A stretch of 64,000 nucleotides of DNA from an uncultured Anaerolinea sp. (GCA_964626845.1 CAZVGR010000014.1:12570-76569); one strand, 5' to 3'; counted from the first letter of the stretch, positions 3,816 to 57,400 are shown. The notes: a model not told the origin generated them from the sequence alone. Numbers and translations are program-made.

Positions 3816-3824
3816 GCCAGCCCT

Positions 3825-7446: not shown

Positions 7447-7450
7447 CTTT

Positions 7451-7467: not shown

Positions 7468-7499
7468 CCCTCAATGCTGTCGCAATGGAGCGACTCCTC

Positions 7500-38694: not shown

Positions 38695-38852
38695 GAGTGA
38701 GTACGTCGTAAACAAAGTTGTTGAGGTGCCCGGCACTTGACACGAGTTTCTGATCATGTATGAATCGTCGCCAAAGTGCCGGGCGCCGATACGCAGTTAA
38801 TTTGTTTACGGTGTAGTGAGTGGCAGGAATAACCAACAAACAACAGGGGCAC

Positions 38853-38897
38853 AGCCAGCGAGCTTGCCAGCTATGCCCCTGTTTGATCATGCATCCA
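38853..38897 (-). terminator. Rho-independent-like terminator (stem ACAGGGGCA/TGCCCCTGT followed by a T-rich run on the minus strand)
   Basis: Hairpin plus 'tgtttgttggtt' downstream of the 38942 stop. Confidence 0.5.
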
Positions 38898-38941
38898 GTT
38901 GAGGGTCAGAAGACAAGGGATTGGTCATGCGACCGCAGGTA

Positions 38942-39358
38942 TCAGGCGGCAGCAGGCCCCTTGTAGCGGGCGTCGCCAAAGCCCAGGATCAGGTAGCCAA
39001 TTGCACTGAGCAGGAAGAGGAGAATCACGCCCCAAGCCGCGCTCTTGTCAAAAGACTTGGCCAGATCGATGGACACGATCAAGGCGGCGAAGAAGTTGAC
39101 GAACGGGATGAAGAACAGGATCAGCCACCAGCCGGGCCGGCCGATGATCTGCAGCAGCACATAGATGTTGTAAATCGGGATGATGGCTGCCCAGCCAGGC
39201 TTGCCCGCCTTGGTGTACACGCGCCACAGCCCTGCGATAATCAGGATAGCAAAGATCAGACCACAGACGGACGCGAAGCCGCTGGTGAGCAGGGCAAAGA
39301 TTCCGGTATCGTCTTGCTGCAACACAGCCATCGACAAAATAGAAAGCAGATACGACAT
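38942..39358 (-). CDS. Small membrane protein (DUF5684-like)
   Basis: Start ATG 39358 after GGAGGAAA. Motif AGKPGWAAIIPIYNIYVLLQIIGRPGWW. Confidence 0.55.
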   Translation of the reverse strand: MSYLLSILSMAVLQQDDTGIFALLTSGFASVCGLIFAILIIAGLWRVYTKAGKPGWAAIIPIYNIYVLLQIIGRPGWWLILFFIPFVNFFAALIVSIDLAKSFDKSAAWGVILLFLLSAIGYLILGFGDARYKGPAAA

Positions 39359-39658
39359 AGAAATTTCCTCCGTAAGATCAAGAACAAGGGTGGCGCCGTG
39401 CCGCTTTTGGGATGACAGCGGCATCAACGCGCCGATACAACGAAAAAAACTGGATGCAAGACAGCTACAAGTATACTGCAATTCGATTACAATACAACTC
39501 TGGCAAGCCAGCGCACTGCGCCTCGCTGCTCCACAGTTTTCTTGCCCAGGTTACTCGTCAGGCGCCGGGCACTTGCAACCCATGCACCGCTTAAAGAGGA
39601 TCGGCGGACATCCTTGCAGGCGCAGATTCAAGCGCCCGGCGCCTATCGGCGCCTGGGG

Positions 39659-40354
39659 TTACTCGCTCAGGATGATCGGCACACGCCAAGGCGGATCATC
39701 GCGCCACACCACCCGCAGCATCAGTCCGGCTTCGGCTGCGCGCTGCTCCATGCGCGCCAACAGGCTGGCCGACTCAGCGCCAGAAATCTGCTGACTCAGC
39801 CTGCCCAAGGCGGGCCAGTCCACGTTGCAGGTCACGAACAAGCCGGCAATAATCAACCGGCCGCCCGGCCGCAGCACGCGACGAAACTCAGCCAGGCTGG
39901 CAGGGTCGACGATGTACTCGGCCGGGAAGGTGGCGACAACGCTGCCAAAGCTGGCTTGGGCCAGAGGCAACTGCTGGGCGCGGCCTCGCAGACGGGGGGT
40001 ATGAAGGCCGCGGCGGCGCAGCGTGGCGGCGGCCTGGCGCTGCATAGCCGGCGACAGGTCGATGCCCACGGCCGGCCAGCCGCGCTCGGCCATGGCCGCC
40101 AGCAGGTGGCCGGTGCCGAAGCCCACTTCCAGCACTGGCCAGCTTTCGACGTAATCCAGCGCCATGCGCCGCCAGCGGTCCCATCGGCCTGCGCTGACGA
40201 TCCACGCGGCCAGGTCATAGCTCCAGGCGAACTCGTTGTACAGCCGGCGCGTCGCCCAGAGGTAGAGCCGGGCTGGCAGCGGCAAGGGGTGGGCAGCTTG
40301 ATCCATGCGCTCAGTGTATCCCAGCCCATACCGATTGTCCAAAAGCGCCAGCAC
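39659..40354 (-). CDS. Class I SAM-dependent methyltransferase
   Basis: Motif I 'VLEVGFGTG'. GTG start 40354 after an AAAGGG SD. Confidence 0.7.
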   Translation of the reverse strand: MLALLDNRYGLGYTERMDQAAHPLPLPARLYLWATRRLYNEFAWSYDLAAWIVSAGRWDRWRRMALDYVESWPVLEVGFGTGHLLAAMAERGWPAVGIDLSPAMQRQAAATLRRRGLHTPRLRGRAQQLPLAQASFGSVVATFPAEYIVDPASLAEFRRVLRPGGRLIIAGLFVTCNVDWPALGRLSQQISGAESASLLARMEQRAAEAGLMLRVVWRDDPPWRVPIILSE

Positions 40355-42086: not shown

Positions 42087-45000
42087 TTACTGCACCAGAA
42101 TGGTCGTCTGCTGCGTGTCCAGCGTGCTATCCCCCGAGACGATAAAGGCGATGGTTTGCAGCCCCGCGCTAACAGCCTGCACGCGGGCGGTGACTGCAAC
42201 GACCTCATTGGCCGGTATCACCAGCGACTGAGCGCTCAAATCAACCCGCAGCCCAGCGCTGGTTTGCGCGGCCAGCCGCACAGCTTGCGCCTGCCGGCTG
42301 TAGTTGAAGATCTGCACGCGCACATCGACCTGCTCGCCGACCATCATCTGCCCTGGCACGTTGGACGACAAGAACACAGGCTGGAAAACCACCAACCGCG
42401 CCACAGCGCTGCCCAGCCGGCCGCTGCGATCCACGGCCAGCGCCGTGATGCGCCAGGTTGTGATGGCATCGCCGGTAGGGATCGAGACGCTCAGCCGGCC
42501 GCCTGGGTCGGTGATCGCTTCAGGGTTCCAGTAGAGCGTCTGGGGGAAGCGCTCCCGGATGATGGGCAGCGATTCCACAGGTATCTCAGCGGGCGCAACT
42601 GCCGCCTTGGCGGCAGCAGGAGCGGCCAGAGCGTCGGCGGCTGGCGCTTCGACCGTAGCTGGCGGCTGCGGGGTCGCAGTCGCTGCGGGCTGCGGGGTCG
42701 CAGTCGCTGCGGGCTGCGGGGTGGGCGTAGCTGGCGGCTGCGCCGTTGGCTCCGGCTGCGGCGTCGCAGTGGGTTCAGCGGTCGGCGATGCCGTCGGCTC
42801 TGGCGATGCCGTCGGCTCTGGCGATGCCGTCGGCGTTGCCTCCGGCGTCCAGGTGAACGTGGGGCTGGGCGTCGGGCTGGGCGTTGCCGTGGCGGTTGGG
42901 GTGCCAGCGGCATCTGCGCTCTGCGCGCGCACGGCTGCGTCCACTTCAGCAGGGGTCAGTGTCGGGGTCACGGTCGGCGTGATGGTAATCGTCGCCGTGG
43001 CCGTGATCGTCGCTGTGGGCGTGATCGTCGCCGTCTCAGACAGCACAACCGTGGCCGTAATCGGCGCCTGGGCAGCGAAAACCGAGGTCTCAGCCTCGAC
43101 CGTGCCGCTCATCGAACGCAGAGCGTCTGGCTCGATCGTCGGCGTCGCCAGGTCGGGTTCAGTTGTCGCCGTTGCCTCTGGCGCGACTTCAGCCACAACG
43201 GTGGCCTCAGGTTCGGCAGGCTGAAGCATAAACCCAGACGCTTCCTGCGCGCTGACTGCCTCAGTGGGGCCAGGTTCACCCTGCCCACCAAGTGTTTCTT
43301 CCACCATTGGCTGCGCCTCTGCGGCCAGCTCAGCCGGCGCGGCGGCAGATTCAAAGACGGGCGGCGGGGCAGGAGCAGCAGCCGGCGCGGCCATATCACC
43401 GGCGGCCGGCTGCGCTGCCAACCCCTGGCTCTGGGGAGCTGCCGGCGGCGCGGCGCAGGCCGTCAACAGACCGTTGCCCAGCCCATAGACCATTGGCGCA
43501 GTGACCCGCTGAATCAGCTCTGCGCCGCGGAAATCGACCGTGTTGAGGGCCGCCGTCAGCGGCATAACCAGCAAGGCCAGCAGCAGCATGCCCAGCCCGG
43601 CCCGCTTCTGGCCCTCCATGCGCAAGCCCCAGCCGAAGAGCAGCATAGTCGCCAGCAGCACGCCAAAGCTCAACGCCAGCGCCACCAGCCAGGCCGGCGA
43701 CAGCGTGGCGCCCTGGCCGGCTGCAAAGGCCAACAGCGCCAACAACGCCATATAGGCCAGCAGCAACAGGGCCACGTATTGCAGGCGCTGATCACGCTGC
43801 CGCCAGCCGTAGACCAGAAGGGCGATCAGCAGAGCCAGCCATAGCCCGCCAGCCGCAGCCAGCAGCAGCCAGTCACCCTGGCTCGACAGGTTGTCCAGCA
43901 GCATTTGGGTCAGGGCGATCAGCCCTGCGCCCAGCACCGCCAACACCAGCAGGGTCAGCAACAGACGGCCCAGCGCCCCGCCCAGCACACCGCTGCGCCG
44001 CAGTCCTAGCAGCACAATGGCGGCAGCCAGCAGCGCAGCCAGCACCAGCGCCAGGCTGAGGCCGCGGCTGATCTGGCTGAAGGCCTGCTGGCGGGCAGCG
44101 TTGGACGCGCTGTCGCTGGCCTGATCGATGGACTGGGCCGACAGGCTATACTGCCGGCCAGCATAGTTGGCCCAACTGGCCTGGGCTGTCAATTGCTGCG
44201 CCGCCCGTAGCTGCCTGAGCTCCTCGGCCGCAACATCGTCGCCCTCTGGCAGAGCTATACCGCTGTCTGACAGCTCCTGATCCAGCAAGAAGAAGGCGCG
44301 GGTAAAGCCGGGTTGATAAGCGCGCTGGCCGTAAACTGCCTCGTTGACCACCGCCAGCCCGACAGCCGTCTGCACGCCCTCTCCATCGGCCGTCGTCCTG
44401 ACGCTAAGCTCGGCTTGCTGGCCGGGGCGATACTCTACCCGGTCGGTGGCAAGCTGCACCTGCACGTCTTCGGGCGCATCCACCAAAGCCACGCGGGTGT
44501 CCCGCAGGACGTTGTTCTCGCCCGTAAGCTGGTAGGCGTTCAGCTCCAGCGCGCCGACCAACGCCGGCGTCAGGTCGATAGCCAGCGTCGCCTTGCCGTC
44601 CTGGATCAGCGCCGACTGGGTGAGCAGCGTCTGGCCGCCCTTGATCACGTCCACGTAGACCGCCGGGCCGCTGCCGGTGGCGATGGCCTCCACAGCCAGG
44701 GTGTCGCCCACCTGATACAGCGCGCGATCGGTGCGCAGCAGCAGCGTTTCCTGAGCTTCGTCCAGGGGCAGGACCAGCGAGGTCGAGCCGGTGCGGCCGG
44801 CCGCGTCCGTGGCGGTGACGACGACCGCGCGGTCGCCTTCTGCGCCGGCCCGCGGGGTATAGCGCACCTGGGCCACGCCGAAGTCGTTGGTGTCTTCCGT
44901 GATCAGCGCGCCGGAGCCGATCTGCACCTGGAGCGCTGTGGGGGCCGGCCGGCCGTCAGGATAGCTGGTCAGCACGTAGAGGATGTTCTCGACGCCCGCG

Positions 45001-46379
45001 CGCAGCGTGCCATCCTCCGGCGTCACGTCGATCAGGATCGGCTCGCGCGCCAGGGTCAGCGCCTGCCAGCCAAACTGGGCATCGCCGGTAACGTCGACCA
45101 CGGTGGCCTCCAGCGCCAAATCGATGACGCCGCCAGGGCCAAACGCGTCCTCTGCCAGGTCAGGCAACTGGAACTGGAAGGCGAACAGGCCGTCAGCGTT
45201 GCTCTCCCCCAGCAATTCCTCAGTAAACAGCAACACTTCGCCGGCAGTGGGGTCTTGCTCCAGGCGTATGCCCACCAGGCGCAAGGCGACCTGGCCGCCG
45301 GCCACGGGCTTGCCGAAGAAATAGCTGGCGCTAACCTGGCCGGTCAGCAGGTCGCCAGGCAGGTAGTACGGGGCGTCGGTCTTCACATCGACCAGGAAGG
45401 TGGGCAGCGGCGCCTGGCCCAGGGTCACGCTCAGCTCCGACACCGTATCGCCCAGCGTGGCGCGCAGTTGGTACTGGCCTAACGGGGTGTCGACGGCCAG
45501 GGGCAGGCTGGTGGCGGCGATGCCAAACTCCGACGACATCTGCTGCTGCGACAGGATCTGCCGGCCGGCCGCGTCGAAGACCTCGAAGCGCGTGACCGCG
45601 CCAGAGGCCGGGGTCTCGTCCACCGTGCCCAGGGCCAGCGTGCGCAGATGGATGGTCTCACCCGGCTGGTAAACCGGCTTGTCGCTGCTCAGCAGCAGGC
45701 GGTAAGAGCGCTGCAACAGCACGGGCGCGACGACTTCGTCCTGGCCCAGATCGCTCTGGGTGGACACGATCAACTCGGCGTTGCCCTCCCAGTCGGCCGG
45801 CACGTCGAACTGCACCGGCGCCGAGCCGGTGGCGTCGGTGCGGCCCTGGAAGACGGTGCGGGCCAGGCCGGCCTGGCGCATCTGCACGGCCACGCTGGCA
45901 TCGGCGACTGGTTGGTTATCGGCTGGGTTATTGACCACCACGCGCAGCGCGGCCTGGCTGCCGGGCGCCAGGGTGTCCTGGCCCAGCACCAGGGTCTGCT
46001 GGGCGCTGTTCTGCGCCGGGAGCCGGGTTGCGCTGAGCACCATGCCAAAGAAGAAAACGGCCACCAGCGGGATAGCTGCCTTGCTCAGGGGGCGCAACCC
46101 GGCCAGCAGCGCGGCCCACAGGCCGGCCAGGCTGCTCTCTTTACGGTTGCGTTGAGCCAGCAAAGCGCTGCGCATGCGCGCTTCCGCGGCCGCAGACAGA
46201 TGGACCGAGTTATAGACCACCGGCACAACTGTGCTCAGGCCCACCCGCAGCCGCTGGAGGTCCACCAGCTCAGCCGCGCAGGCCGGGCAGTCAGCGATAT
46301 GCGCCTCGGCGGCCTGCATCTCCGCCGGGCTCAGCTCACCATCCAGGTAAGCCAGCAGGTCTAGTTCGATGTGAGTCAT
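42087..46379 (-). CDS. Giant anti-sigma factor: N-terminal zf-HC2 anti-sigma domain, TM, alpha-2-macroglobulin-like (MG) domains, internal multi-TM block, Thr/Pro/Ala-rich linker, A2M-like C-terminal domain
   Basis: 1430 aa. 'HIADCPACAAEL' zinc-finger anti-sigma motif. Repeated 'Y(Q/R)PGE(T/Q)' MG-domain signatures. Directly downstream of the ECF sigma gene. Confidence 0.7.
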   Translation of the reverse strand: MTHIELDLLAYLDGELSPAEMQAAEAHIADCPACAAELVDLQRLRVGLSTVVPVVYNSVHLSAAAEARMRSALLAQRNRKESSLAGLWAALLAGLRPLSKAAIPLVAVFFFGMVLSATRLPAQNSAQQTLVLGQDTLAPGSQAALRVVVNNPADNQPVADASVAVQMRQAGLARTVFQGRTDATGSAPVQFDVPADWEGNAELIVSTQSDLGQDEVVAPVLLQRSYRLLLSSDKPVYQPGETIHLRTLALGTVDETPASGAVTRFEVFDAAGRQILSQQQMSSEFGIAATSLPLAVDTPLGQYQLRATLGDTVSELSVTLGQAPLPTFLVDVKTDAPYYLPGDLLTGQVSASYFFGKPVAGGQVALRLVGIRLEQDPTAGEVLLFTEELLGESNADGLFAFQFQLPDLAEDAFGPGGVIDLALEATVVDVTGDAQFGWQALTLAREPILIDVTPEDGTLRAGVENILYVLTSYPDGRPAPTALQVQIGSGALITEDTNDFGVAQVRYTPRAGAEGDRAVVVTATDAAGRTGSTSLVLPLDEAQETLLLRTDRALYQVGDTLAVEAIATGSGPAVYVDVIKGGQTLLTQSALIQDGKATLAIDLTPALVGALELNAYQLTGENNVLRDTRVALVDAPEDVQVQLATDRVEYRPGQQAELSVRTTADGEGVQTAVGLAVVNEAVYGQRAYQPGFTRAFFLLDQELSDSGIALPEGDDVAAEELRQLRAAQQLTAQASWANYAGRQYSLSAQSIDQASDSASNAARQQAFSQISRGLSLALVLAALLAAAIVLLGLRRSGVLGGALGRLLLTLLVLAVLGAGLIALTQMLLDNLSSQGDWLLLAAAGGLWLALLIALLVYGWRQRDQRLQYVALLLLAYMALLALLAFAAGQGATLSPAWLVALALSFGVLLATMLLFGWGLRMEGQKRAGLGMLLLALLVMPLTAALNTVDFRGAELIQRVTAPMVYGLGNGLLTACAAPPAAPQSQGLAAQPAAGDMAAPAAAPAPPPVFESAAAPAELAAEAQPMVEETLGGQGEPGPTEAVSAQEASGFMLQPAEPEATVVAEVAPEATATTEPDLATPTIEPDALRSMSGTVEAETSVFAAQAPITATVVLSETATITPTATITATATITITPTVTPTLTPAEVDAAVRAQSADAAGTPTATATPSPTPSPTFTWTPEATPTASPEPTASPEPTASPTAEPTATPQPEPTAQPPATPTPQPAATATPQPAATATPQPPATVEAPAADALAAPAAAKAAVAPAEIPVESLPIIRERFPQTLYWNPEAITDPGGRLSVSIPTGDAITTWRITALAVDRSGRLGSAVARLVVFQPVFLSSNVPGQMMVGEQVDVRVQIFNYSRQAQAVRLAAQTSAGLRVDLSAQSLVIPANEVVAVTARVQAVSAGLQTIAFIVSGDSTLDTQQTTILVQ
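42620..42900 (-). repeat. In-frame tandem DNA repeats (18-bp units, e.g. ggcgatgccgtcggctct x3) encoding the TASPEP/TPTATA linker
   Basis: Direct inspection. Confidence 0.7.
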
Positions 46380-46419
46380 AAATGAATGTATCGCTCGGGC
46401 CGGTCTCCGACCGAGCCCG

Positions 46420-47136
46420 TCAGCGCAGTGTCAGCAAAAGCATCATCATCTGCGCTGCCGAACGACGCCGGCCCAGGTCGGGTGCTTGCGTTGTCAGAAT
46501 CTCCTGTAACTTCTTGTGCGCATTGAAGAGCCGCGACTTGACGGTGCCGATGTTGATCTGCAAGGCGTCTGCGATCTCCTCATACGAAAACTCCTGGCCG
46601 TAGCGCATCAGCACCACTTCACGATGCACGTCGCTCAACTGGTTGACCGCGGCCCACAGGCGGACTTTGTCCTCCTGACGCAGGGCCAGGTCCTCTGGAT
46701 TGCCAGCCACGTGGCCGGTCATCGAGCCGTCAGACGGCTCAGCCTCGGCCGGCATGCGCTCCAGGCGCTCTTCCATCTCGTCCCAGTCGGCCGAGGGCAG
46801 GCGTTTTTTGCGCAGCCGCGTCTTGCAGCGGTTGACCGTCACCCGGTAGACCCAGGTCTCGAAGCGGGCCGCGCCGTCCACGTCATAGCTTCTCAGGCCG
46901 CGCAGCACGTCCATGAAAGTCTCCTGCGTGGCCTCTTCGGCGTCGTCGCTGTTGCGCAACGTCATGTAGGCCACGCGGTACACATAGTCCTTGTAGCGCT
47001 CGAACAGCGCGTCAAAGGCCGCTGGCTGGCCGGCCTGGTGACGCCTGATCAATTCCTCGGTGGACACACCGTAGGTTGGGGTCCTGCTGCGCCCAGCCGG
47101 GACTGCGCTGGCAGGGTTCGCTACATCGGAAGGCAC
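46420..47136 (-). CDS. RNA polymerase ECF-type sigma-70 factor
   Basis: Region 2 (FDALFERYKDYVYRVAYMTL...ETFM) and region 4 (FSYEEIADALQINIGTVKSRL). GTG start with AAGGA SD. Confidence 0.8.
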   Translation of the reverse strand: MPSDVANPASAVPAGRSRTPTYGVSTEELIRRHQAGQPAAFDALFERYKDYVYRVAYMTLRNSDDAEEATQETFMDVLRGLRSYDVDGAARFETWVYRVTVNRCKTRLRKKRLPSADWDEMEERLERMPAEAEPSDGSMTGHVAGNPEDLALRQEDKVRLWAAVNQLSDVHREVVLMRYGQEFSYEEIADALQINIGTVKSRLFNAHKKLQEILTTQAPDLGRRRSAAQMMMLLLTLR

Positions 47137-47302
47137 GTCGTATTCCTTGACGCCTGCGGGTTACATGCAGGGCGAGTGGGATTTGTTCGCAGGAGGAGAC
47201 GGCCTGCGAAGATGGGATGGTTCCCGTTGTTGGCTTGCAGTGTAGCCGGGGAGATAGAAGGAGTCAAACTGCGGGGAATGGGTTTGCCGGGGATGAGAGT
47301 GA

Positions 47303-47338
47303 GAGATGACATTTCTTCCGCAGAAATGTCATCTCTGA
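47303..47338. repeat. Palindrome AGAGATGACATTTCT-tccgcag-AGAAATGTCATCTCT (GAGATGACATTTCT family)
   Basis: Direct inspection. Lies between the dinB-like operon end and the sigma gene. Confidence 0.8.
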
Positions 47339-47356
47339 AGGATGGAGGGCAGGCCC

Positions 47357-47845
47357 TTAACGCTCTAGCTCATCGAAGTACGCCCAACTATCCAGCTCCG
47401 GCGGCTCGATGCCCAGTTGCGTCAGAATGGCCATGACCTGGGCGCGGTGCTCGGTGGCATGGTTGATGGCCTGGGTGAGCAGGATTGTCTTGGGCACGTC
47501 GCGCAGCACGCCGTCCCAGTCGATCTCTACCACGTCGCCGGCCTGCACCTGGGGCGCCCAGTCGACCAGGCCGGCGCCGCTGGCGCGCGTCCATGCGAGC
47601 ATCTCGGCCAGGGTCAGCGGCGGCGCATCGGCGGGATGGCGGTACGGCCGGCCGGTGCTGATGCGGGAGAAATAGGAGCGCTCGGCGCTGACGATATGCT
47701 GCAAGGTGTCGCGGATCGAGCCGAACGTGCCCAGCAGCGTGGCGTCCAGTTGTTCGTCGCTCAGCCCGGCGCACAGCTCGATGAGGCGCTCGTTGGCCCA
47801 CAGGTTGTGACGGAAGAGGGTGGTGAGGGTGTCGGTAGGGTTCAT
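47357..47845 (-). CDS. DinB/YfiT-like (DinB_2) family protein
   Basis: Start ATG 47845 (MNPTDT) after GGAG. The ORF extension to 48346 is spurious. His-rich DinB-fold motifs. Confidence 0.65.
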   Translation of the reverse strand: MNPTDTLTTLFRHNLWANERLIELCAGLSDEQLDATLLGTFGSIRDTLQHIVSAERSYFSRISTGRPYRHPADAPPLTLAEMLAWTRASGAGLVDWAPQVQAGDVVEIDWDGVLRDVPKTILLTQAINHATEHRAQVMAILTQLGIEPPELDSWAYFDELER

Positions 47846-48420
47846 GGGAGCACTCCGTTGGTGGCAGCGAAATCGACTTCCTCGGCCGTGGCGATGCGGT
47901 TGGCGCGGCCAGGGTAGCTTAGCCAGGTCATGGCAACGTTGAGGTCGCGGATGATGCTCTCCGCCTCGATGCGCATGCCGTCGTCGAACTCCATGGCGCC
48001 GGTGGTGTGGGCGTCCTTGAGGAGGGTCAGGTCGTAGCCGCGATCCAGCGCGCCGTAGGCTGTGGCGCGGATGCACCAGTTGGTGGCGGCGCCGGCCAGC
48101 ACCACGTGGGTTGCGCTGAGCCGGGCCAGCTCCTCTTCCAGGGTGGTCTGCTCGAACGAGGAGTTGAAGCGCTTGTGGATCACCGGCTCGTCCGCGGCCG
48201 GCGTGAGTTCCGGCGCCCACTGCCACGCCTCGCTGCCGTACACCAACTCCTCGTCCGAATGCTGCACCCAGATCACGGGCGCGCCACGAAGGCGCGCCCG
48301 CTGGACGGCGCGCGCCACATTCCTGACGATGCGGGGGGCATCCCACGCCTCGCTCACCACGCCGACCTGCACATCGACCACCAGCAGGACTGTCTTGTTG
48401 CCTGCGCGTATTGTTGCCAT
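47842..48420 (-). CDS. Isochorismatase family (cysteine hydrolase) protein
   Basis: Start ATG 48420 (MATIRAG) after GGAG. ATGA overlap with the downstream gene. Confidence 0.7.
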   Translation of the reverse strand: MATIRAGNKTVLLVVDVQVGVVSEAWDAPRIVRNVARAVQRARLRGAPVIWVQHSDEELVYGSEAWQWAPELTPAADEPVIHKRFNSSFEQTTLEEELARLSATHVVLAGAATNWCIRATAYGALDRGYDLTLLKDAHTTGAMEFDDGMRIEAESIIRDLNVAMTWLSYPGRANRIATAEEVDFAATNGVLP

Positions 48421-48510
48421 GCCATTATCTCCAATCGCCGTCAGCCAATGGTACGGCGCGATCATGGGTCTCGGCCCATCTGTCGAAAAGCTGAGTGCGC
48501 TCTGTTTGGT

Positions 48511-48699
48511 TCATAGCTGAGGAGTCTCTTCTTCTGTCTCCTCTGCCAACAATTCTTCGAGCACTTGAATGGCGCCGCTGATGCGCTGCAGGGTGGTTTG
48601 CAGATCGGCCTTTTTGGTCTCCAGATCAGCCAGCATTTTTTGGCCGGCTTCGTATTCGGACTTTAACTCGGCGATACGTCGTTCAAGCTGTGGGCGCAT
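48511..48699 (-). CDS. Small coiled-coil hypothetical protein (62 aa)
   Basis: AAAGGA SD 5 nt upstream. Heptad-like sequence. Confidence 0.4.
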   Translation of the reverse strand: MRPQLERRIAELKSEYEAGQKMLADLETKKADLQTTLQRISGAIQVLEELLAEETEEETPQL

Positions 48700-48720
48700 A
48701 TCAAATCCTTTCTGTATGCC

Positions 48721-49062
48721 TTATGACTGCGGGTCGAACTGGAAGACGCGCAACTCCTGGTCGCAGCGGCAGGCCCTGGCGATGCGCGCGGCCCACGCGA
48801 CCGCCTCCTCGCGCGAGGGCAGTTCGAGCACGGTGAAGCCGCCGTCGAGCGGGGGCGCCCACGGATAGCCGCCCTCGGCGACCGCGCCGTCGGCCGAGAC
48901 GAGCACAGGTGGCACGTCCGCGTCGATGCCGCCGCCGAAGACGTAGACGCCGGCAGCCTTTGCCTCATCGATCACGGCATGTGCGTCACGGCCCACCGCC
49001 TCCCACTCGCCGTCGGGCACGTCCATCGCCGCGCTGGGAAAGGAAATCAGGTACTTGGACAT
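48721..49062 (-). CDS. YciI-like (YCII-related) family protein
   Basis: 113 aa. DGPF-type domain pattern. Confidence 0.6.
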   Translation of the reverse strand: MSKYLISFPSAAMDVPDGEWEAVGRDAHAVIDEAKAAGVYVFGGGIDADVPPVLVSADGAVAEGGYPWAPPLDGGFTVLELPSREEAVAWAARIARACRCDQELRVFQFDPQS

Positions 49063-49117
49063 TGGTGCTCCTTCTGTTGGGGATTATGACCGCGAGTTCG
49101 TCGCCTGCAAGCACTCG

Positions 49118-49651
49118 TTAGCCCGGCCGATTGGACAATTGGTCATCTTCTCTGTGACCCGGACACCCCGCGGTTTGGAGTACCATTGTGACGACTTCCT
49201 GCAAAGCGATGCTGGCGTCAATCTCATGATCTGCAACCTTTCGCAACAAAGGCTCAATCTCGGAGATGTTGCTCAGGACAGCGGCTGCTTCTGCGGGGTC
49301 CTTCCCGTATGGATTCCCCGTTCGCGTGGTCAGCCGGTCGAGGAGTACTTCGGCAGGCGCACTTAGCAGGATCACATGATCGAACTGCGGCAGGAACTCT
49401 CCCATATTCGCTGCACAACCACTCACGAAGAGCCAGTCGGCAGCCTCGTCTGCGAGAAGATCCTGAACCGCGTCCTCCCTCCACACCCAGTCCTTGCCAA
49501 CACGGGATCCCGTCGGATTGCCGGCGATGTCGACCCAGTGCGACCACTCTTCTGAGTCGAGATCCACCGCCATGTACCCGAATTCACCGAGTTTCTGCGT
49601 GATCGATGATTTTCCGGTTCCGGACATGCCGGTCAGTAGAACTCGGATCAT
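49118..49651 (-). CDS. P-loop NTPase (small kinase-like AAA family ATPase)
   Basis: Walker A 'LTGMSGTGKSS'. 177 aa. Lower-GC context. Confidence 0.55.
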   Translation of the reverse strand: MIRVLLTGMSGTGKSSITQKLGEFGYMAVDLDSEEWSHWVDIAGNPTGSRVGKDWVWREDAVQDLLADEAADWLFVSGCAANMGEFLPQFDHVILLSAPAEVLLDRLTTRTGNPYGKDPAEAAAVLSNISEIEPLLRKVADHEIDASIALQEVVTMVLQTAGCPGHREDDQLSNRPG

Positions 49652-49855
49652 GAAGCCCTATCCTCCTTGTGATGTCGGTGCCCAAGCGCCTAAACCGGCT
49701 AACGGATCAAGAGATTCATGTGGTGCGCTGGCAGCCAAGAGACAACTCGATTGGCAAAGCCAGCCACCATCATGTACCGTCGTTCAGGGTGCAGAGCGCC
49801 GGTTCTCTTCCTAACATTAGCCGTCCTGTTCGGTTTACGGCTTCGTTCACCGGTG

Positions 49856-50287
49856 TTATTGGTTGGCGACGATTCCGTAGACGTAGATACCATCTTCAGG
49901 CCCGTTCTTGAACCGGTTAGCAACCCGTTGCACGGGCCACATGACCGCTCCGCTGGCCAAGACAACGGCGATGTTCATTTCGGCTTCTGGATCATTGTCG
50001 TCCCCTTGCCACTTCCCGTTGTAAGCACGAATGATGACCTCGCCAACGTATGAGCCGATTGCGAAGATGCGGGAGCCAAGCTGTTCCGCAAGCAGACCCC
50101 CGGGGATGGCTTGTCCGTTTTGCGCATGTTCATCGAAAAACCGATCGATTTCGCGAAGGCTCTCAATCGAAAAATCGGCGTGGTAGCCGGAACTGGAAAG
50201 CGCCTTGGCGATCCACTCTGCCCCTTTTCGGGCGTCATCGATAACCGCCGGCACTTGTGCATGTCGCTTCCGTAACCAGTCAAACAT
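49856..50287 (-). CDS. Hypothetical protein
   Basis: Start ATG 50287 (MFDWLRK); ORF to 50344. No family recognised. Confidence 0.35.
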   Translation of the reverse strand: MFDWLRKRHAQVPAVIDDARKGAEWIAKALSSSGYHADFSIESLREIDRFFDEHAQNGQAIPGGLLAEQLGSRIFAIGSYVGEVIIRAYNGKWQGDDNDPEAEMNIAVVLASGAVMWPVQRVANRFKNGPEDGIYVYGIVANQ

Positions 50288-50539
50288 GCGGGTACCTCTT
50301 ACCAGCGAACGGAATGAGAAATCTACGGGGCATGCTGTCACCAAGCAGGCGCCTCTTCATGCAAAGCCAGTCATCATTAAAGATCGGCGGTTGTTCAGAA
50401 TGAATACCGCCGCACGAAGGCAAGTGTAACATTGCGGGCCAAAAAGGTCAACAGCAATCCCGCCTGGCAAGCGCACAGGACGAGGTGTGATTTCCCAATC
50501 CGCCCGCCATGGGCAATCAGCCATCAACAAGCGCCGGCC

Positions 50540-51050
50540 TCACGGCTCACCTGACTCTTCTTCTGCCTGCAGCCAGGCCAGTGTCTCGGCCTGGGCTTGC
50601 TCAAACGAGACGACCGGTTGATAACCCAGCGCGCGCGCGGCCTTATCGTGCGAGAAGAAGAAGTCAACGCAGGTGGAAGCGACCACATAGCGCGTGAGCG
50701 TTGGGGTCGACGGGCCGATTCCCCGCCGGGCGGCCGTTTCCATCACGATCGCCAGCCAATAGGCCACACGGTAGGGGATGCGCCTCCTCGCCGGCGGGAA
50801 CCCGAACGCGGCCAGGTAAGGTGTGAAGAAATCGAAGAAGTTCCCTGCCGGGTGGTCGCCAATGAAGTACGCCTGCCCGGCGGCTGGGCCAGCCAGCGCC
50901 TCAGCGGCCAGGATGTGGGCATGCACTACGTTGGCCACGTACACAATTGTCAAAGGCGCGAACGCTCACGCCGCGGTTTTTCAGCTCCGAAGCCAGGGCA
51001 GCGCCAAGAAATCCCGCCCCACCTATGACCAGTGCGTTTTGCATCAAGTT
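50540..51050 (-). pseudogene. Disrupted NAD-dependent epimerase/3-beta-hydroxysteroid dehydrogenase gene (N-terminal Rossmann segment fused out of frame to a C-terminal fragment)
   Basis: Minus-strand 'MQNALVIGGAGFLGAALASELKNRGVSVRAFD' at 51046-50951 is in a different frame from the 137-aa C-terminal ORF 50540..50953. About 150 codons of the central domain are missing. Confidence 0.55.
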
Positions 51051-51051
51051 C

Positions 51052-51396
51052 CTATCGATTACCTTTGGCCCGGTTGTGGGTAGTGCAGAGCATCTGGCAG
51101 TTCCTGGCTGTACTTTCGCCGCCTTTGCTCCATGCCGAGACGTGGTCGGCGTCCATTTCGTTGAACTTGTAGATTCTGCTCTTGTTCGCGGTGTCCCCGA
51201 CCGCGCAGAGCGGGCAGTTGGACTTGCCCTTGCCCTGGGCTGCTTGCGTCTGCTGAGTGTAGGCGACTTGCTTTACCTTGTCATCGAATACCCGAACTGC
51301 CAATAACTTCTTGTTTGCCGACGCGGCGTGCAGGCCTTGGTTCAACGACTTGCTTTCCATGGCGTGATTGGCTTCCTTGGGTTTCTTTGATGGCAT
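51052..51396 (-). CDS. HNH endonuclease
   Basis: Motif 'CPLC...DHV.AWSKGG...NCQMLCTTHNRAKGN'. Confidence 0.75.
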   Translation of the reverse strand: MPSKKPKEANHAMESKSLNQGLHAASANKKLLAVRVFDDKVKQVAYTQQTQAAQGKGKSNCPLCAVGDTANKSRIYKFNEMDADHVSAWSKGGESTARNCQMLCTTHNRAKGNR

Positions 51397-51537
51397 TTCG
51401 GGCTAATGTTCCGCTTCAGCCGCGGCGCGCAGCGCCGTCCACTGCATGCTGTTGTTAGCCGGCCTTCCGAGGCCTGTAGTTGCTTTCCTAGTCTCTCCGG
51501 TCATTTGTTCCCATTTCAGAGCGTTGAGCGCGTAGCG

Positions 51538-52590
51538 TCAGTCAGAAACATCATCGGGCATGTCTTCTTGATCGGCATCGACAAGCTCGTCGGTACGCTC
51601 AATTCGGAGCTTATCGTTGCCAACCTCAAACTCGACGTGCCCCCCGTCGGCCATCCGCACCGTCATCGGCGGCAAAGGGTCGGACGCGTCATTCAGTAGC
51701 GCCGCAAGCGGTTCTCGGACGTATCGTTCCAGAAACACGCTCATCACAGGTCCGGCCTTGGACTCAAGGTGCTGCCAAGCTGAGTCGCCAACGAACGCAT
51801 GCCCGCCCACGTCGTGGAACGCCTTAACCAAATCTGTAAGCTTAGGGTTGGGGGTTGGATCAAGTACAACAAGCACGGGAGTGAACCCCGACCCAACACA
51901 GTCAATTGGGAACTGAAGCTCTTCCCCCCACCGGCCTTGGCCCGATGCTGCGATTGTCACACGAATCTTGAATTCGTAAGCCAACTTCTGCTTCACGCAA
52001 TCGACCTGGCGGCCCTTCCCTCGGTCGCCCTGCCGTTTCACGGGGCTTCTCTTCGCACTTACCGGCGTGCCGCCGATGGCATTTGCGAGAATCGGCTCGA
52101 ACAGGTATCCAGTCTCCTGAGCCGCGCGATTGTCCAAGTCGTAAAGCCACTTGCGCCAGTACAGCATTCCGGCGAGTGCCGGGGATGGCAGGCTACCGAA
52201 CTGAAGCAATCCGCGCGGACCCACCTGGTCGAAGGTTGGGAAGGCTTGTCGCTGCAGGATTTGTTCGTACTTTAGGCGGCTCTTGTGCAGTGTTGCGAGG
52301 CAGGAGAAGTACGTGTCTGAGTCCGGCTTGAGGGAGAACAACTTTGCTGCCAAGTCCTCAAATGGAATCCTCGCCAACGTGAGAGAGGAAACCGGCCAAG
52401 TTTCGAAGAACGGCGGCAGGTCTTGAGGTACCTCGGGGACTTGCGAGATGAGATTAAGGTCTTTGACTACGACGCCGCAGAGATAGGCGCAGACCTCTTC
52501 AGAAAGAGGCACTGCCATCTCGCTGTTGCCAACGTTGCGTGCCTTTTCAATAAGCGTCTTCTGAGATAGTGTGAGTTCGTAGTTTGTCAT
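51538..52590 (-). CDS. Putative type II restriction endonuclease (partner of the adjacent C5-methyltransferase)
   Basis: 350 aa, no family recognised. Start codon overlaps the methyltransferase stop. Low-GC island. Confidence 0.45.
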   Translation of the reverse strand: MTNYELTLSQKTLIEKARNVGNSEMAVPLSEEVCAYLCGVVVKDLNLISQVPEVPQDLPPFFETWPVSSLTLARIPFEDLAAKLFSLKPDSDTYFSCLATLHKSRLKYEQILQRQAFPTFDQVGPRGLLQFGSLPSPALAGMLYWRKWLYDLDNRAAQETGYLFEPILANAIGGTPVSAKRSPVKRQGDRGKGRQVDCVKQKLAYEFKIRVTIAASGQGRWGEELQFPIDCVGSGFTPVLVVLDPTPNPKLTDLVKAFHDVGGHAFVGDSAWQHLESKAGPVMSVFLERYVREPLAALLNDASDPLPPMTVRMADGGHVEFEVGNDKLRIERTDELVDADQEDMPDDVSD

Positions 52591-53843
52591 TAGTCCCGTC
52601 CTACTTGCGCGGTCTCGGTGTCCGCGAACAGCGTGAGCTGTTGGGACCGAATGATGGCGCGGTAGCTGCTCTCGACCGCATCGACGGTCTTCTGAAGCGC
52701 TGGGCTCATGCCGTTTGAGTTCGTGGGCACAAAACTCTTAAGCCCTGCGTCCGATCTCCGATCTGTAATCTCGCGGAAGGCATGTGCAAGATGAGCGGCA
52801 ATTGCATTTGCAAAACGAGGCGGTACGGCATTGCCAATAAGCAGGGCTCGCTGCGCCTGAGTACCAGCAAATTCAAAGTCATCGGGAAACGTCTGGAGTC
52901 GCGCACACTCCCGAAGTGTCAGATTGCGATGTGCAGTCGGATGTACGAACTCGGAAGTGGCCCCGCTGGTGATCGCCTTTGACGGCAGGTCCGGATCTAG
53001 TCGCCGTAGTCCTGAAGGTGCGCCCCCCCTGCGTTCTGTTGGGGTCCCATCCATCACCCTCCTGAAGGCGCGGCGGCGGTAGGTTTCGTGCCAGAGTTCC
53101 TCTGGAATGTCCTTCATGGTCTTGCCGATGCCGAGTGCCTCGAAACGAAGACGGTCCATCTCATTCGGCGGACGAGAGAAATGATCGGTAACGACCGCGC
53201 TTTCTGGATCGCATGCTGCATTTGGAAGGCCATCGAGAGCCTTGGCGACGCTGTCGCACAATGGAAGCTTACCCGCCACGAGATCTGCCCCTGGCGCGCC
53301 TGTGGCGCAGTGGGTCGGCTCCGGAAACCCGGGGTCCCATCCTAAACCTGCAATTGCCAACACCCGTTTGCGATGTTGTGGAACCCCGTAGTTAGCGGCG
53401 TTCACTTTGCGAAGGTGAATGCAGTAGCCAGCACTTACAAGAGGATCGAGCAGATCGGTAACCCAACGGCCTCCCTCACCAGTCAGGAAGCCTTCCACGT
53501 TTTCAAAAACAAACGCTTTTGGGCGATGTCTTGCCACGAGGTGAGCGAAGACCGCCACCAGCGTGTTGCGGGCATCACCAGGCTTCCGCAGGCCTGCTGA
53601 CGAGAACCCCTGACAGGGAGGACCACCGATGATGATGTCGCATGGGGGCAGCACCGTGTCCCAGTTGAGCTTCACATTTTCTACATGGTCCCCGATGTTC
53701 CTCCGGTACGTTTCTACCGCAGGCAAGAACGCATCGGCAGCCCAGACGATACTGAAGCCCTGAGCACGAAATCCTAACCCCAGCCCGCCTGCACCGCAGA
53801 AGAGGTCAGCGACTGTGATTGCTGGCCGCATTTCGAAATCCAA
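52590..53843 (-). CDS. DNA (cytosine-5)-methyltransferase
   Basis: Motifs I FCGAGG, IV GGPPCQGFS, VI ENV, VIII QHRKRV, IX/X RLQTFPDDF and GNAVPP. TTG start after a GGAG SD. Confidence 0.85.
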   Translation of the reverse strand: MDFEMRPAITVADLFCGAGGLGLGFRAQGFSIVWAADAFLPAVETYRRNIGDHVENVKLNWDTVLPPCDIIIGGPPCQGFSSAGLRKPGDARNTLVAVFAHLVARHRPKAFVFENVEGFLTGEGGRWVTDLLDPLVSAGYCIHLRKVNAANYGVPQHRKRVLAIAGLGWDPGFPEPTHCATGAPGADLVAGKLPLCDSVAKALDGLPNAACDPESAVVTDHFSRPPNEMDRLRFEALGIGKTMKDIPEELWHETYRRRAFRRVMDGTPTERRGGAPSGLRRLDPDLPSKAITSGATSEFVHPTAHRNLTLRECARLQTFPDDFEFAGTQAQRALLIGNAVPPRFANAIAAHLAHAFREITDRRSDAGLKSFVPTNSNGMSPALQKTVDAVESSYRAIIRSQQLTLFADTETAQVGRD

Positions 53844-53902
53844 CTTTTACTCCATCACGCTAAGTTAGGCAGAAACGCCATCTCAGTTGAGTTCCGGCTA
53901 CC

Positions 53903-54207
53903 GTAACTGCTCAGCCGGCCGGTCAGAAACCGGGTTTTTCTCGTTGGGCAATGATTTCTGAGTTTGCAAACGCATTGCTCGGGGCTATGATAGCCGCTTC
54001 CGCAGCAAAAACCCGGTTTCTCTAAGGAGCTGTTTAAAAAGCCCGGCAGCGTCGGAATCAGAGGTTGAAACCATCTGGCTGAAAGTACGAAGCGGCCTCA
54101 GCCGCTGGATTCCAGGCCCTGAGGGGCCTTCGTGCTGTCAGCCGGTGGGTTTCCAACCACCGATCCGGGGCTTTTCAAACAGCCTCTAAGCCCAGCCTGA
54201 GCAGTAA
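53903..54207. mobile_element. Left copy of a ~140-bp MITE (TIR TAACTGCTCAG.../...CTGAGCAGTAA), interrupted by a nested MITE
   Basis: Reverse-complement match (1 mismatch) to 60237-60376, split by the 54026-54183 insertion. Confidence 0.7.
54026..54183. mobile_element. Nested 158-bp MITE with ~16-bp TIRs (GCTGTTTAAAAAGCCC / GGGGCTTTTCAAACAGC) and 7-bp target-site duplication CTCTAAG
   Basis: CTCTAAG at 54019-54025 and 54184-54190. The right MITE copy at 60237-60376 has a single uninterrupted CTCTAAG. Confidence 0.7.
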
Positions 54208-54354
54208 CCAGCTACCTAATAATTCGCGGGAATGCCGGCCGTCATATCCCGCTATTGCTCCATCGCCTACCGCTGACGGCCAGTCCATAGTGGCCGCCAT
54301 TGTACCATTTCACCCGTGGGAGGGCAAAAGGGCGCGTTCCGGGCTGCCCAGGGC

Positions 54355-54390
54355 GCGAGAGATGCCATTTCTGCGGAAGAAATGGCATCT
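54355..54390. repeat. Palindrome GAGATGCCATTTCT-gcggaag-AGAAATGGCATCTC (GAGATGACATTTCT family) just downstream of the LTD gene stop
   Basis: Direct inspection. Confidence 0.8.
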
Positions 54391-54410
54391 CTTCGCGTCA
54401 CGCCACCACC

Positions 54411-57400
54411 CTACCGGATTGACAACCACGCATCCCACAGAGTCGCCAGCGCCGGCGGCCGCACGGTCAGCACCGCACCAGTGAGGGGCAGGAAGACGGG
54501 CGCGCGGTTCCAGGCCGTGTCGTCCTGCACGCCGTTGCTGTAGGCTGTCCCGTTGGCGCGGCCGGCCGCGGCAGCCCGGCCGCGCTGCAAGTCGGCCTCG
54601 CGGCGCGGCAGCAGGCGATAGCCGCTCTCGGTCTGGCTGACCACGCCCACCACCGTCCACACCTCGCCGATGTTGACGTAGGGCCGGCGGATGCCGGTCG
54701 CAGGCCGGATGGTGATGCGCGCCTCGCCGCTGCCGTCGTCCAGATAGAGGGTGGTTTCCTTCCAGAAGCCGGTGATGGGGCCGCTGAGCTGCACCAGCCG
54801 GCCCTCGTTGGCCTCGGCCACCTCGCCCGTGCGGATAGGCAGCGGCGCAGGCGGCGCGGCCGGCTGCATGGTCTTGATGTCGTCGATGCGCACCAGGCTG
54901 ATCTGCCGCTCCTCGTAGAAGGTGCCCAGCCGGCCGTTGACTCGCACCCACTGCCCCTCGCTGAGCGGCGGCCACTGGGCCGAACGCAGGAAGACCCGCA
55001 TGCCGCCCGTGGCATCCTGGATGTAGATCTCCTGGTCGTCAAAGACGTTGGGCAGCGCCGTCACCTGGCCCTCCAGCGTCAGCCGCGTGCCGTCGGGCAG
55101 GCTGCGGGCGTGGGCGATGGTCGCCAGGTCGAAGTTGAAGCGGTCGTAGGGCTGTCCACTGCCCGACCCGCCGCCGCTACTGCTTCCACCGCCGCCGCCC
55201 GATCCGCCGCCGCTGTTGGGGTCGGCCGCGTTGGCCTGGCCTGGCGTTTCGATGCAGTCGCGGGACCACTCGCCCACGCCATCGGGCAGTCGGCACCAGG
55301 ATTGGTCATAGCCGGAGAAGACATTGTAGCTCATGCTGTCGGCCAGACTATTGTCCGGGTAGAGCAAGCGCACCTGTTCGCTGCTGGCGTCCAGCGCCAA
55401 GCCGCTCTGAGCGCGGTAGATCACCAGATAGCCCTGGGCCGGCAGCACAAGACCAGAGGGCAGGATGTAGGTCCGGTCTGGCTCATGGCTGGCTGGCTGG
55501 CCATCAGCCAGCTTCCAACCGGCCAGATCGACTGGCTCCTCGCCCAGATTTGTCAACTCGATCCACTCGTCCAGATAGCTTGGGACGCCGTTGCCGTCCC
55601 AGTCCACGTTCTGCGGCGAGGGCAGCACCTCGTTCAGCCGCACGGTGGTGGCCACCGGCGTCGGCGTCAGTTGCGGCGTCGCGGTGGGCGTCGGCGTGGG
55701 CGTGCCGCCGGGCGTGTTGCTGCCGCCGGGCGTGGGCGGGTAGCTGCGCGTCCACTCTGCGCCGCCGTCCACCGTCTTACTGGCGGCCTGATCGTCGCGG
55801 CTGCTGCTGTACTGGGTCTCCTCCACCACCAGGCCATCGGGCCGCAGCAGCCGCACCCAGTCGCCGTCGTTGTTCAGGGCGATGCCGGTCTGGCTGCGGA
55901 AGAAGAGCAGGAAGCCGCGGGCCGGGATGGTCGCGCCGGGCGGCAGGGTGTAGGGCGCTGAGCCGCCGCTCGCCACGTCGTCCAACTGCCAGCCGCTCAG
56001 ATCGACCGCGAAGTCGTTGGCGTTGTATAGCTCGATGTACTCATCGTCCTGGTTGGCTGCGCCGTCGCCGTTCCAATCGGAGGCGGGGTCGGGCATGTAC
56101 TCGTTCAGGCCGACGCCATCAGGATAGACGCCGGGCGTAGCCGTCAGCGTGGCAGTCGGTGTTGGCGTCGGGGTCGCGGCCTGGTTGGACGCGCCGGGCG
56201 AGGGCGGGTAGGCCATCGTCCACTGGTCGCCGCCGTCCACCGTCTTGCTGTAACTGACGTCGGCCGGCGCGGCCGTGTAGCTGTGGTTCTCCACCTCCAC
56301 GCCGTCGGGCCGCAGCAGCCGCACGCTGTCGCCGCCGCTGTTGTTGAGGGCGATGGCCGTGTCCCGGCTCCACAGGGTTAGGAAGCCTTGCGCCTCGATC
56401 ACCGCGCCGGCCGGCAAGGTGTAGGGCGACGACCCACCGCCCGCCACATCGTCCACCTGCCAACCGCTTAAGTCGACGGCGAAGTCGTTGGCGTTGTAGA
56501 GCTCGATGTACTCGTCGTTGGCGTCGCCCACGATGCCATCGCCGTTCCAGTCGGCCTCGGGGTTGGGCATGAACTCGTTGAGCACAATGCCATCAGGGTA
56601 GACCACGGGCGTACCGGTGGGCGTGGCGGTCGGGGTAGGCGTGGCCGTAGGGGTGTTGGCAGCCTGGTTGGACGCGCCGGGCGAGGGTGGGTAGCTCATC
56701 GTCCATTCGTCGCCGCCATCTGTGGTCTTGCTGTAGCTGACGTCGGCCGGCGCGGCTGTGTAGGGGTGGTTCTCCACCTCCACACCGTCGGGCCGCAGCA
56801 GCCGCACGCTGTCGCCGCCGCTGTTGTTGAGGGCGATGTTCGTGTCGCGGCTCCAGAACACCAGGAAACCTTGCGCCTCGATCACCGCGCCAGCCGGCAA
56901 GGTATAGGGGGACGAGCCGCCGCCGGCGACGTCGTCTACCTGCCAGCCGCTCAGGTCGACGGCAAAATCGTTGGCGTTGTAGAGCTCAATGTACTCGTCG
57001 TTGGCGTCGCCCCGGATGCCGTCTTCGTTCCAGTCAGCCTCGGGATTGGGCATGAACTCGTTGAGCACGATGCCTTCGGGATAGTCTACCGGCAGCGGGG
57101 TTGGCGTGGGCGTCGGCGTGCCGGCCGGCTGGTTGGATGCGCCAGGCGAGGGCGGATAGTCCGTCGTCCACTGGTCGCCGCCGTCCACGGTCTTGCTGTA
57201 GCTCACATCGGCCGGCGCGGCCGTGTAGCTGTGGCTCTCCACCTCCACACCGTCGGGGCGCAGCAAGCGCACGCTGTCGCCGCCGCTGTTGTTGAGAGCG
57301 ATGTTTGTGTCCCGGCTCCAGAACACCAGGAAGCCTTGCGCCTCGATCACCGCGCCAGCAGGCAAGGTATAGGGGGACGAGCCGCCGTTGGCGATGTCAT

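Follow-up and report, generated by a model that had tools for sequence, protein, structure and literature searches.

ApaLI is the endonuclease of a type IIP restriction-modification (R-M) system specific for G^TGCAC, a two-gene arrangement in which the endonuclease is a separate protein. DNA of phage Xp12, whose cytosines are all 5-methylcytosine (5mC), is not cut by ApaLI (PMC7653180), an observation compatible with protection being conferred by a C5-methyltransferase. In the m5C systems HaeIII and HhaI, the methylation and endonuclease genes are tightly linked, and the methyltransferase motifs follow the order I, IV, VI, VIII, target-recognition domain (TRD), IX and X. EcoO109I (PDB 1wtd) provides a structurally determined type IIP enzyme of the PD-(D/E)XK fold, and R-M genes in general have been described as selfish mobile complexes, or as islets in variable hot spots, which are compact, keep their own base composition and occur in unrelated contexts. 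Here we analyse a 64,000-nucleotide stretch of DNA from an uncultured Anaerolinea sp. (GCA_964626845.1 CAZVGR010000014.1:12570-76569; the whole stretch is called the window below, and positions are counted from its first letter), which very probably carries, at 51398-53904, a type IIP R-M cassette with predicted activity, likely directed at GTGCAC and acquired horizontally into a 7.0-kb lineage-specific mosaic. The cassette comprises the following elements.

51398..51537, minus strand: 3' tail of the R-M cassette; DNA homology with an Acidobacteriota contig (L011) reaches 51398, and a repetitive extragenic palindrome (REP)-like palindrome of ~60 nt lies at ~51400-51462
51538-52590, minus strand: predicted type IIP restriction endonuclease, ApaLI-like PD-(D/E)XK, 350 aa (PF09499, invariant residues, structural model)
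52590-53843, minus strand: C5-cytosine DNA methyltransferase, Dcm-type (PF00145, E 2.7e-60; TIGR00675, E 5.2e-51)
53844..53904, minus strand: cassette leader of ~60 nt; L011 DNA homology reaches 53904, where a miniature inverted-repeat transposable element (MITE), MITE-A, begins

A first-pass annotation of the window, made by a model from the sequence, had proposed a type II pair formed by a Dcm-type C5-methyltransferase with all canonical motifs and, overlapping its stop codon, a 350-aa protein without recognisable family, presumed to be the cognate endonuclease. The methyltransferase part of this proposal was confirmed. Both profile matches lie above the curated cut-offs (PF00145, 204.9 bits against 22; TIGR00675, 174.2 against 100.65), the protein aligns with M.HaeIII (5.8e-33) and M.HhaI (1e-22), and all the motifs checked (6/6; I, IV, VI, VIII, IX and X) are present, with FCGAGG at position 11, PPCQGFS at 71, ENV at 110, QHRKR at 152, RECARLQTFP at 307 and GNAVPP at 333 of the 413-aa form. 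This form starts from the ATG at 53831, while a TTG preceded by a GGAG Shine-Dalgarno sequence, a start also kept in L011 and L013, gives a protein of 417 aa. The enzyme is thus a canonical C5-cytosine methyltransferase. Its TAA stop and the ATG of the endonuclease gene share 1 nt in a TAATG junction, as had been noted, and translational coupling is therefore likely.

The 350-aa protein, in turn, does have a family. Our local Pfam copy (model version.16) gave a match to RE_ApaLI (PF09499) of 18.1 bits (gathering score 25; E 0.0024), and the precomputed table, built with model version.18, reports an unmarked match, meaning E<=1e-5, for the protein itself and for all homologues listed. The homologues number 2,872 at E<=1e-3, with PF09499 on 120/120 of those listed, and several of them are named 'restriction endonuclease' by NCBI; moreover, the profile was matched independently by 19 of 33 aligned relatives, with a best value of 8e-5. 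Residues E165, D197 and E206-x-K208 are invariant in the 33 aligned sequences. In the AlphaFold (AF2) model (pLDDT 81.5, pTM 0.82) these residues sit on a helix and on the consecutive strands 196-200 and 203-208, a helix-then-adjacent-strands arrangement which, if the model is right, is the usual layout of the PD-(D/E)XK core. PHROGs, PADLOC and NCBIfam hold no model for this protein, and a sequence search of the PDB returned nothing meaningful. We predict that it is an ApaLI-like PD-(D/E)XK restriction endonuclease, so that the locus presents the features expected of a type II system, namely, separate, adjacent and linked methyltransferase and endonuclease genes, the latter with PD-(D/E)XK core residues.

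The linkage of the two genes was examined in 80 loci encoding endonuclease relatives, taken from GTDB species representatives. In 78/78 loci with upstream DNA, the endonuclease gene is immediately preceded, in the same orientation, by a Dcm orthologue (53-87% identical) whose end is within a few bases of the endonuclease start; in the other 2 the contig ends upstream of the endonuclease. The identities of the two proteins covary across loci. This pattern, together with the nuclease-family match, argues for the 350-aa protein as the cognate endonuclease, as first presumed. Homologues of the other genes lying downstream in the window (an HNH nuclease, an epimerase fragment, a P-loop protein, a YciI-like protein and two small open reading frames [ORFs], described below) occur in 0/80 of these loci.

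Copies of the cassette with 86-91% protein and 81-83% DNA identity were found in metagenome-assembled genomes (MAGs) labelled Acidobacteriota, Proteobacteria, Desulfovibrionaceae and Cyanobacteriota, and the same cassette, identical, recurs in several sequencing runs. DNA homology breaks off at the cassette edges: the widest match, with L011, covers 51398-53904, beginning 2 nt short of the HNH start codon and ending where MITE-A has its first base. The GC content of the cassette is 0.49-0.60 in hosts whose flanks have 0.57-0.72. From these comparisons, the mobile unit is an independent two-gene cassette of ~2.5 kb (51398-53904), which has spread horizontally between bacterial phyla. In plasmid and phage collections we found three remote plasmid matches, no phage match and no close copy, and thus identified no vector of the cassette.

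Some features of the cassette ends and of its neighbours in other hosts can be added. The palindrome of the cassette tail reads GGCTAACAAC.GCATGCAGC.GAC...GCTGA...GTTAGCC, and similar palindromes occur in unrelated Gemmatimonadaceae, Acidobacteriota and metagenome contigs (L011 at 11129; L053 at 1062, 2806 and 8032, three copies; L102 at 436). Read by eye, some ORFs next to the cassette in other hosts suggest toxin-antitoxin genes of HicAB-like type and an IS91-like transposase; in particular, around the 91%-identical cassette of the Acidobacteriota MAG (L011 6096-8551), the upstream ORFs resemble, again by eye, an IS91-family transposase and an HNH-motif protein, and a HicA-like ORF follows downstream.

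As regards the recognition site, we consider it fairly probable that this is GTGCAC, methylated as GTG(m5C)AC. Three hexamer palindromes are wholly missing from the window: CAGCTG, expected 36 times; GTGCAC, expected 15.4 times under a Markov model and 21.8 times from composition; and CTCGAG, expected 11-22 times. In the 1.27 Mb around 72 homologous cassettes from many phyla, GTGCAC ranks first for depletion among the 2,054 hexamers considered, with 72 occurrences observed versus 214 expected, and CTGCAC and ATGCAC, each one mismatch away from it, are enriched. We also considered GWGCWC and GDGCHC as degenerate sites and rejected both, since GAGCAC/GTGCTC and GGGCAC occur at expectation around the same cassettes.

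A working type II cassette with a different site, such as CAGCTG, CTCGAG or one we have not seen, is possible, if unlikely. CAGCTG and CTCGAG are as completely missing from the window as GTGCAC, the protein resembles the ApaLI family only remotely, endonucleases that are distantly related often recognise different sites, and the pooled depletion of GTGCAC is modestly above that of other palindromes once a control is considered. What speaks for GTGCAC, besides its first rank in the pooled sequence, is the comparison with relatives. Four related contigs without the cassette at the locus contain 8 GTGCAC in 47.5 kb, where 13.5 are expected, whereas CAGCTG and CTCGAG are wholly missing in 3 of the 4 (L092, L175 and L177). 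Since relatives without the cassette at this locus lack the latter two sites and yet keep GTGCAC, avoidance of CAGCTG and CTCGAG is a lineage trait, and it is only GTGCAC that has been lost specifically in the genome studied here. Furthermore, at three alignable orthologous positions GTGCAC is present in the relative and not in the window; one of them shows GTGCAC -> GTGTAC, compatible with the change expected from 5-methylcytosine deamination at position 4, a single case which proves nothing. Finally, GTGCAC is the only characterised specificity of PF09499 (Pfam description). GGGCCC, GAGCTC and CTAG are also strongly depleted.

It is improbable that the cassette, whatever its site, no longer restricts, for instance with an inactive endonuclease and the methyltransferase acting as a solitary epigenetic enzyme. 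Decay may occur in the family: in a Desulfovibrionaceae-labelled MAG with an 87%-identical cassette (L007 8666-10000; L008 2673-3910) the methyltransferase is called as split or truncated and the endonuclease is intact, which reflects either decay or an assembly error. In the window, on the contrary, both ORFs are full length, the methyltransferase motifs and the invariant endonuclease residues are all retained, the cassette was recovered identically in several sequencing runs, and the total absence of GTGCAC fits continuing selection.

A further alternative concerns the gene that immediately follows the cassette.

51052..51396, minus strand: small HNH endonuclease gene, stand-alone, encoding 114 aa or, if the next ATG is used, 102 aa (PF01844, E 7.6e-7)

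The first-pass annotation had placed an HNH nuclease in the island, and the gene is there: the protein scores 29.6 bits against a PF01844 cut-off of 21.4, with the C-terminal His-Me finger sequence DADHVSAWSKGG...NCQMLCTTHNRAKGN. It is very improbable that it works with the methyltransferase in a three-gene system, whether as the real nuclease or in an accessory role, Vsr-like or methyl-directed. The gene is located 140 nt downstream of the pair on the same strand, and the protein matches the C terminus of a PADLOC type II endonuclease model at 1.8e-10; however, it is absent from all 80 linked loci, the L011 homology stops just before its start codon, and its family (>1,000 homologues, typically ~116 aa) occurs in variable contexts without linkage to Dcm or another methyltransferase. 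The HNH gene is thus an independent gene outside the R-M cassette and, as judged from gene content across loci, it and the other small genes are acquisitions separate from the cassette.

The cassette lies in a stretch of deviant composition. In the sliding-window profile, GC content is 0.55-0.60 across ~48.3-54.3 kb versus 0.65-0.72 on either flank, with means over 500-bp windows of 0.581 (sd 0.027) within and 0.654 (sd 0.035) outside, and all remaining low-GC runs of the window are at most ~1.3 kb long. GC at third codon positions (GC3) is 0.57-0.74 in most island genes (Dcm 0.59, endonuclease 0.66, P-loop 0.65, 162-aa ORF 0.61, 62-aa ORF 0.57, HNH 0.74) and 0.81-0.86 in the flanking DinB, isochorismatase, sigma factor, anti-sigma factor and lamin-tail domain (LTD) genes. 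The lower-GC island of the first-pass annotation was thus recovered, and the genes that it listed there are all present, all on the minus strand. Two of them, the YciI-like one (GC3 0.88) and the remnant of the epimerase (GC3 0.76), are compositionally host-like, so that the island is a mosaic.

Comparison of the locus among relatives established its extent. The nearest named relatives of the flanking extracytoplasmic function (ECF) sigma factor are Anaerolineae MAGs. In three distinct relatives (L174, L175/L176 and L177/L178; sigma factor 78-82% identical) the LTD gene directly adjoins the sigma gene, followed by the anti-sigma/alpha-2-macroglobulin gene, and L174 additionally retains, like the window, EPSP synthase and a 398-aa protein upstream; the ten genes that run from DinB through the methyltransferase in the window are all missing at these loci. 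In the closest relative found (L092, sigma factor 93% identical), the isochorismatase gene adjoins the sigma gene and DinB is missing; homology ends at window position 48433, and a different low-GC gene, DUF2200, occupies the place beyond. From the relatives' LTD-sigma loci without intervening genes, and from the difference in L092, the variable segment is defined as ~47337-54357 (7.0 kb), assembled in several steps. The span first assigned to the island, 48500-53850, holds as the low-GC part of this wider segment, which also takes in the DinB and isochorismatase genes, both of host-like GC. The low-GC stretch is foreign DNA missing from related bacteria, combining deviant composition with absence from related genomes, and the absence from three relatives and the 81-83% identical cassette DNA in other phyla agree with the horizontal acquisition already proposed. 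It is scarcely credible that the low GC reflects a local sequence constraint or relaxed selection on native DNA: other short low-GC patches exist in the window and no mobility or tRNA gene was detected, but the whole segment is missing from relatives that otherwise keep the order EPSP synthase, LTD, sigma, anti-sigma, and the cassette recurs at 81-83% DNA identity in other phyla.

Overall, the core of the first reading is supported, with corrections to the family of the 350-aa protein, the boundaries and unity of the island, and the orphans; the composition does differ from that of the flanks, and the family matched by the 350-aa protein is one of nucleases, not a non-nuclease one.

Several results weigh against a working, horizontally acquired cassette specific for GTGCAC. 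The local PF09499 match stays below the gathering score and is limited to residues 186-277, and Foldseek of the endonuclease model against the PDB gave nothing significant, the best match being EcoO109I at E 0.05. As to the site, an isochorismatase-based metagenome scan yielded 80 loci, of which 1 was a syntenic relative and the other 79, unrelated, served as composition control; in this control GTGCAC is also mildly depleted (ratio 0.66), and, although no other palindrome has a cassette/control contrast as low as its 0.49, others reach 0.56-0.60, so that the pooled depletion alone is just suggestive. The lack of CAGCTG and CTCGAG points to several restriction pressures on the genome; this implies other restriction systems in the lineage, such as PvuII- and XhoI-type, none of which is encoded in the window. 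A search for R-M genes that could explain this avoidance in the other low-GC patches of the window found none. A tension also exists between the un-ameliorated cassette (GC3 ~0.6 versus 0.85), which suggests recent arrival, and the complete loss of GTGCAC across 64 kb, which points to long exposure; a second isospecific system, or an earlier one, may have been present elsewhere in the genome. Finally, nothing was detected that accounts for the insertion: there is no integrase or transposase among the Pfam matches of the genes in the variable segment and no tRNA gene within the window, and, of the hallmarks of genomic islands, mobility gene, tRNA target and flanking direct repeats were not found, the segment being flanked only by inverted copies of a 35-nt hairpin.

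The other short low-GC patches (minimum 0.52-0.57) lie at 38500-39800, 6800-7900, 3700-5000 and 1-700, and the one at 38.9-39.5 kb contains a 179-aa membrane-like ORF. The remaining features of the variable segment and of its borders are as follows.

47302..47336, no strand assigned: 35-nt perfect hairpin (15-bp stem, 5-nt loop), sigma-proximal boundary, inverted copy of 54358-54392
47357..47860, minus strand: DinB-family gene (PF05163, 1.8e-22), host-like GC, missing from L092
47842..48465, minus strand: isochorismatase-family hydrolase (PF00857, 1.1e-36), host-like GC
48511..48699, minus strand: 62-aa coiled-coil protein (sub-threshold coiled-coil matches)
48721..49062, minus strand: YciI-like protein, 113 aa (PF03795, E 0.003, below the Pfam cut-off), host-like GC of 0.70
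49118..49651, minus strand: P-loop kinase-like NTPase, 177 aa, AAA_18/shikimate-kinase-like (PF13238, 2.6e-11; PF01202, 6.3e-7)
49856..50344, minus strand: 162-aa protein (143 aa by other gene calls) with an uncharacterised ~125-aa domain
50540..51044, minus strand: pseudogene of an NAD-dependent epimerase/3-beta-hydroxysteroid dehydrogenase/OleD-like reductase, two pieces in different frames
53903..54208, plus strand: MITE-A copy, a 142-nt element with the 12-nt terminal inverted repeat GTWACTGCTCAG, interrupted by a second MITE
54027-54183, inside the MITE-A copy: second MITE, 157 nt, with a 7-bp CTCTAAG duplication on both sides
54358..54392, no strand assigned: 35-nt hairpin, LTD-proximal boundary, 18 nt past the LTD stop codon
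60236-60377, inverted with respect to the 53903-54208 copy: uninterrupted MITE-A, 142 nt, beyond the LTD gene, with the 8-bp flanking duplication AAACGCCG

Among the host-like genes, the isochorismatase shares 85% amino acid identity with its counterpart in L092 and is missing from the more distant L174-L178, and the DinB gene, together with its hairpin, was either inserted in the window or deleted from L092, where ~30 nt (1160-1189) correspond to window 47281-47868. The P-loop NTPase named in the first-pass annotation was recovered, and a YciI-like gene is present, with a weak family match. The two genes given there as orphans are not such: the 62-aa protein belongs to a 90%-identity cluster of 26 members from many samples (that of the YciI-like protein has 492), and the domain of the 162-aa protein, which has no match in Pfam, NCBIfam, PADLOC or PHROG, occurs in 818 representative clusters at E<=1e-3, alone, in tandem or, in some homologues, fused to HEAT, TPR, WD40 or DUF6630, a pattern that might suggest immunity-type proteins.

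The epimerase gene is indeed disrupted, but not by truncation. Its 5' piece (51044-50901) corresponds to positions 1-39 of the Epimerase profile, including the Rossmann GxxGxxG motif, and its 3' piece (50953-50540), in another frame, to positions 202-321 of 329 in OleD; the jump in frame to profile position ~202 therefore indicates an internal deletion of ~165 codons, with a frameshift. Truncation by insertion of an R-M plus HNH block was rejected, the N terminus being intact at 51044, as was the idea of a missing half hidden upstream of the methyltransferase, where the DNA is that of the MITEs.

The island adjoins the MITE-flanked LTD locus, in agreement with the first-pass annotation, the interrupted MITE-A copy lying between the cassette and the LTD gene. 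Because of the MITE repeat, metagenome contigs of the same organism (L001, L003-L005) end at 53929-53930. At 25499-25573 there is also a 75-nt piece of the second MITE, with 87% identity. The gene trio bordering the segment (window 42087-47136 and 54411-60173), conserved across related Anaerolineae (L174-L178), consists of the LTD protein, the ECF sigma factor and an anti-sigma fusion: the first is a giant secreted protein of 1920 aa with 10 lamin-tail domains, whose repeats have a period of 465-483 nt, and a BOF/OB-fold tail, and the last joins a zf-HC2 anti-sigma factor to an alpha-2-macroglobulin-like body (1430 aa).

The stems of the two 35-nt hairpins are distinguished by a single compensated change (A-T to C-G). 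Folded as RNA, the hairpins give -20 to -24 kcal/mol; they may represent terminators or else REP-like elements, and 29223-29252 contains a third copy, which is partial. Rfam gave no match over 46.5-61 kb, so that the hairpins and the REP-like tail are outside known RNA families. Homology with the relatives restarts just beyond the 47302-47336 hairpin, at a conserved TTGAC-type sigma promoter. Given the inverted REP-like hairpins around the 7 kb, the lack of a detected recombinase and the occurrence of the cassette in at least five phyla as a bare unit, one could imagine that the gap between LTD terminator and ECF-sigma promoter is a hairpin-marked accretion site, into which the cassette inserts by a hairpin- or terminator-targeted route, with REP/REP-associated tyrosine transposase (RAYT)-like or single-strand transposition enzymes acting in trans. 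We regard this as a doubtful conjecture of low probability; to our knowledge, no R-M cassette has been described as moving in this way.

Returning to the R-M cassette, probably directed at GTGCAC, we consider the following scheme the best explanation. The methyltransferase would be translated first and would protect the host's own sites, and the downstream ApaLI-like endonuclease, probably coupled to it through TAATG, would cut unmethylated incoming DNA. The cassette was acquired horizontally and lies in a mosaic built up between the LTD terminator hairpin and the ECF sigma-factor promoter, and the same mosaic holds unrelated gains: the HNH gene, the decayed epimerase, the P-loop kinase, three small conserved proteins, the isochorismatase and DinB. 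This offers a testable annotation, namely a predicted m5C/GTGCAC barrier, relevant to transforming uncultured Anaerolineae or reading their methylation. The cassette is also a clean case of an R-M pair crossing phylum boundaries with its own composition kept and its ends sharply defined, and the comparison with relatives illustrates how site avoidance can assign specificity to an uncharacterised endonuclease family.

Compared with the systems described at the outset, the window endonuclease resembles EcoO109I as a predicted PD-(D/E)XK type IIP enzyme, EcoO109I being the top structural match of its model (Foldseek probability 0.89); however, this match is not significant (TM 0.23-0.29, 12% identity) and is a fold-class hint only. 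With HaeIII and HhaI the pair shares the motif order of the methyltransferase and the tight gene linkage, but its target-recognition region is unrelated, its endonuclease comes from a different family, and neither a controller (C) protein nor a vsr gene lies beside it. The likeness to ApaLI is that the window encodes two genes with a separate endonuclease matching PF09499 over the catalytic D...ExK region, the C5-methyltransferase partner fits the failure of ApaLI on 5mC DNA, and the host sequence has been cleared of GTGCAC; different from ApaLI, the match is remote (profile positions 93-186), leaves ~185 N-terminal and 70 C-terminal residues outside, and gives a specificity that is predicted. 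As for selfish mobile R-M complexes, a mobility gene, attachment site or target duplication was not identified for the window cassette itself, whereas its compactness, its own composition, its unrelated contexts across phyla and its position in a hot spot with MITEs and REP-like hairpins agree with such units. Thus, the locus holds an ordinary two-gene R-M cassette of the ApaLI-like kind within a small composite islet, with nothing that would surprise a specialist.

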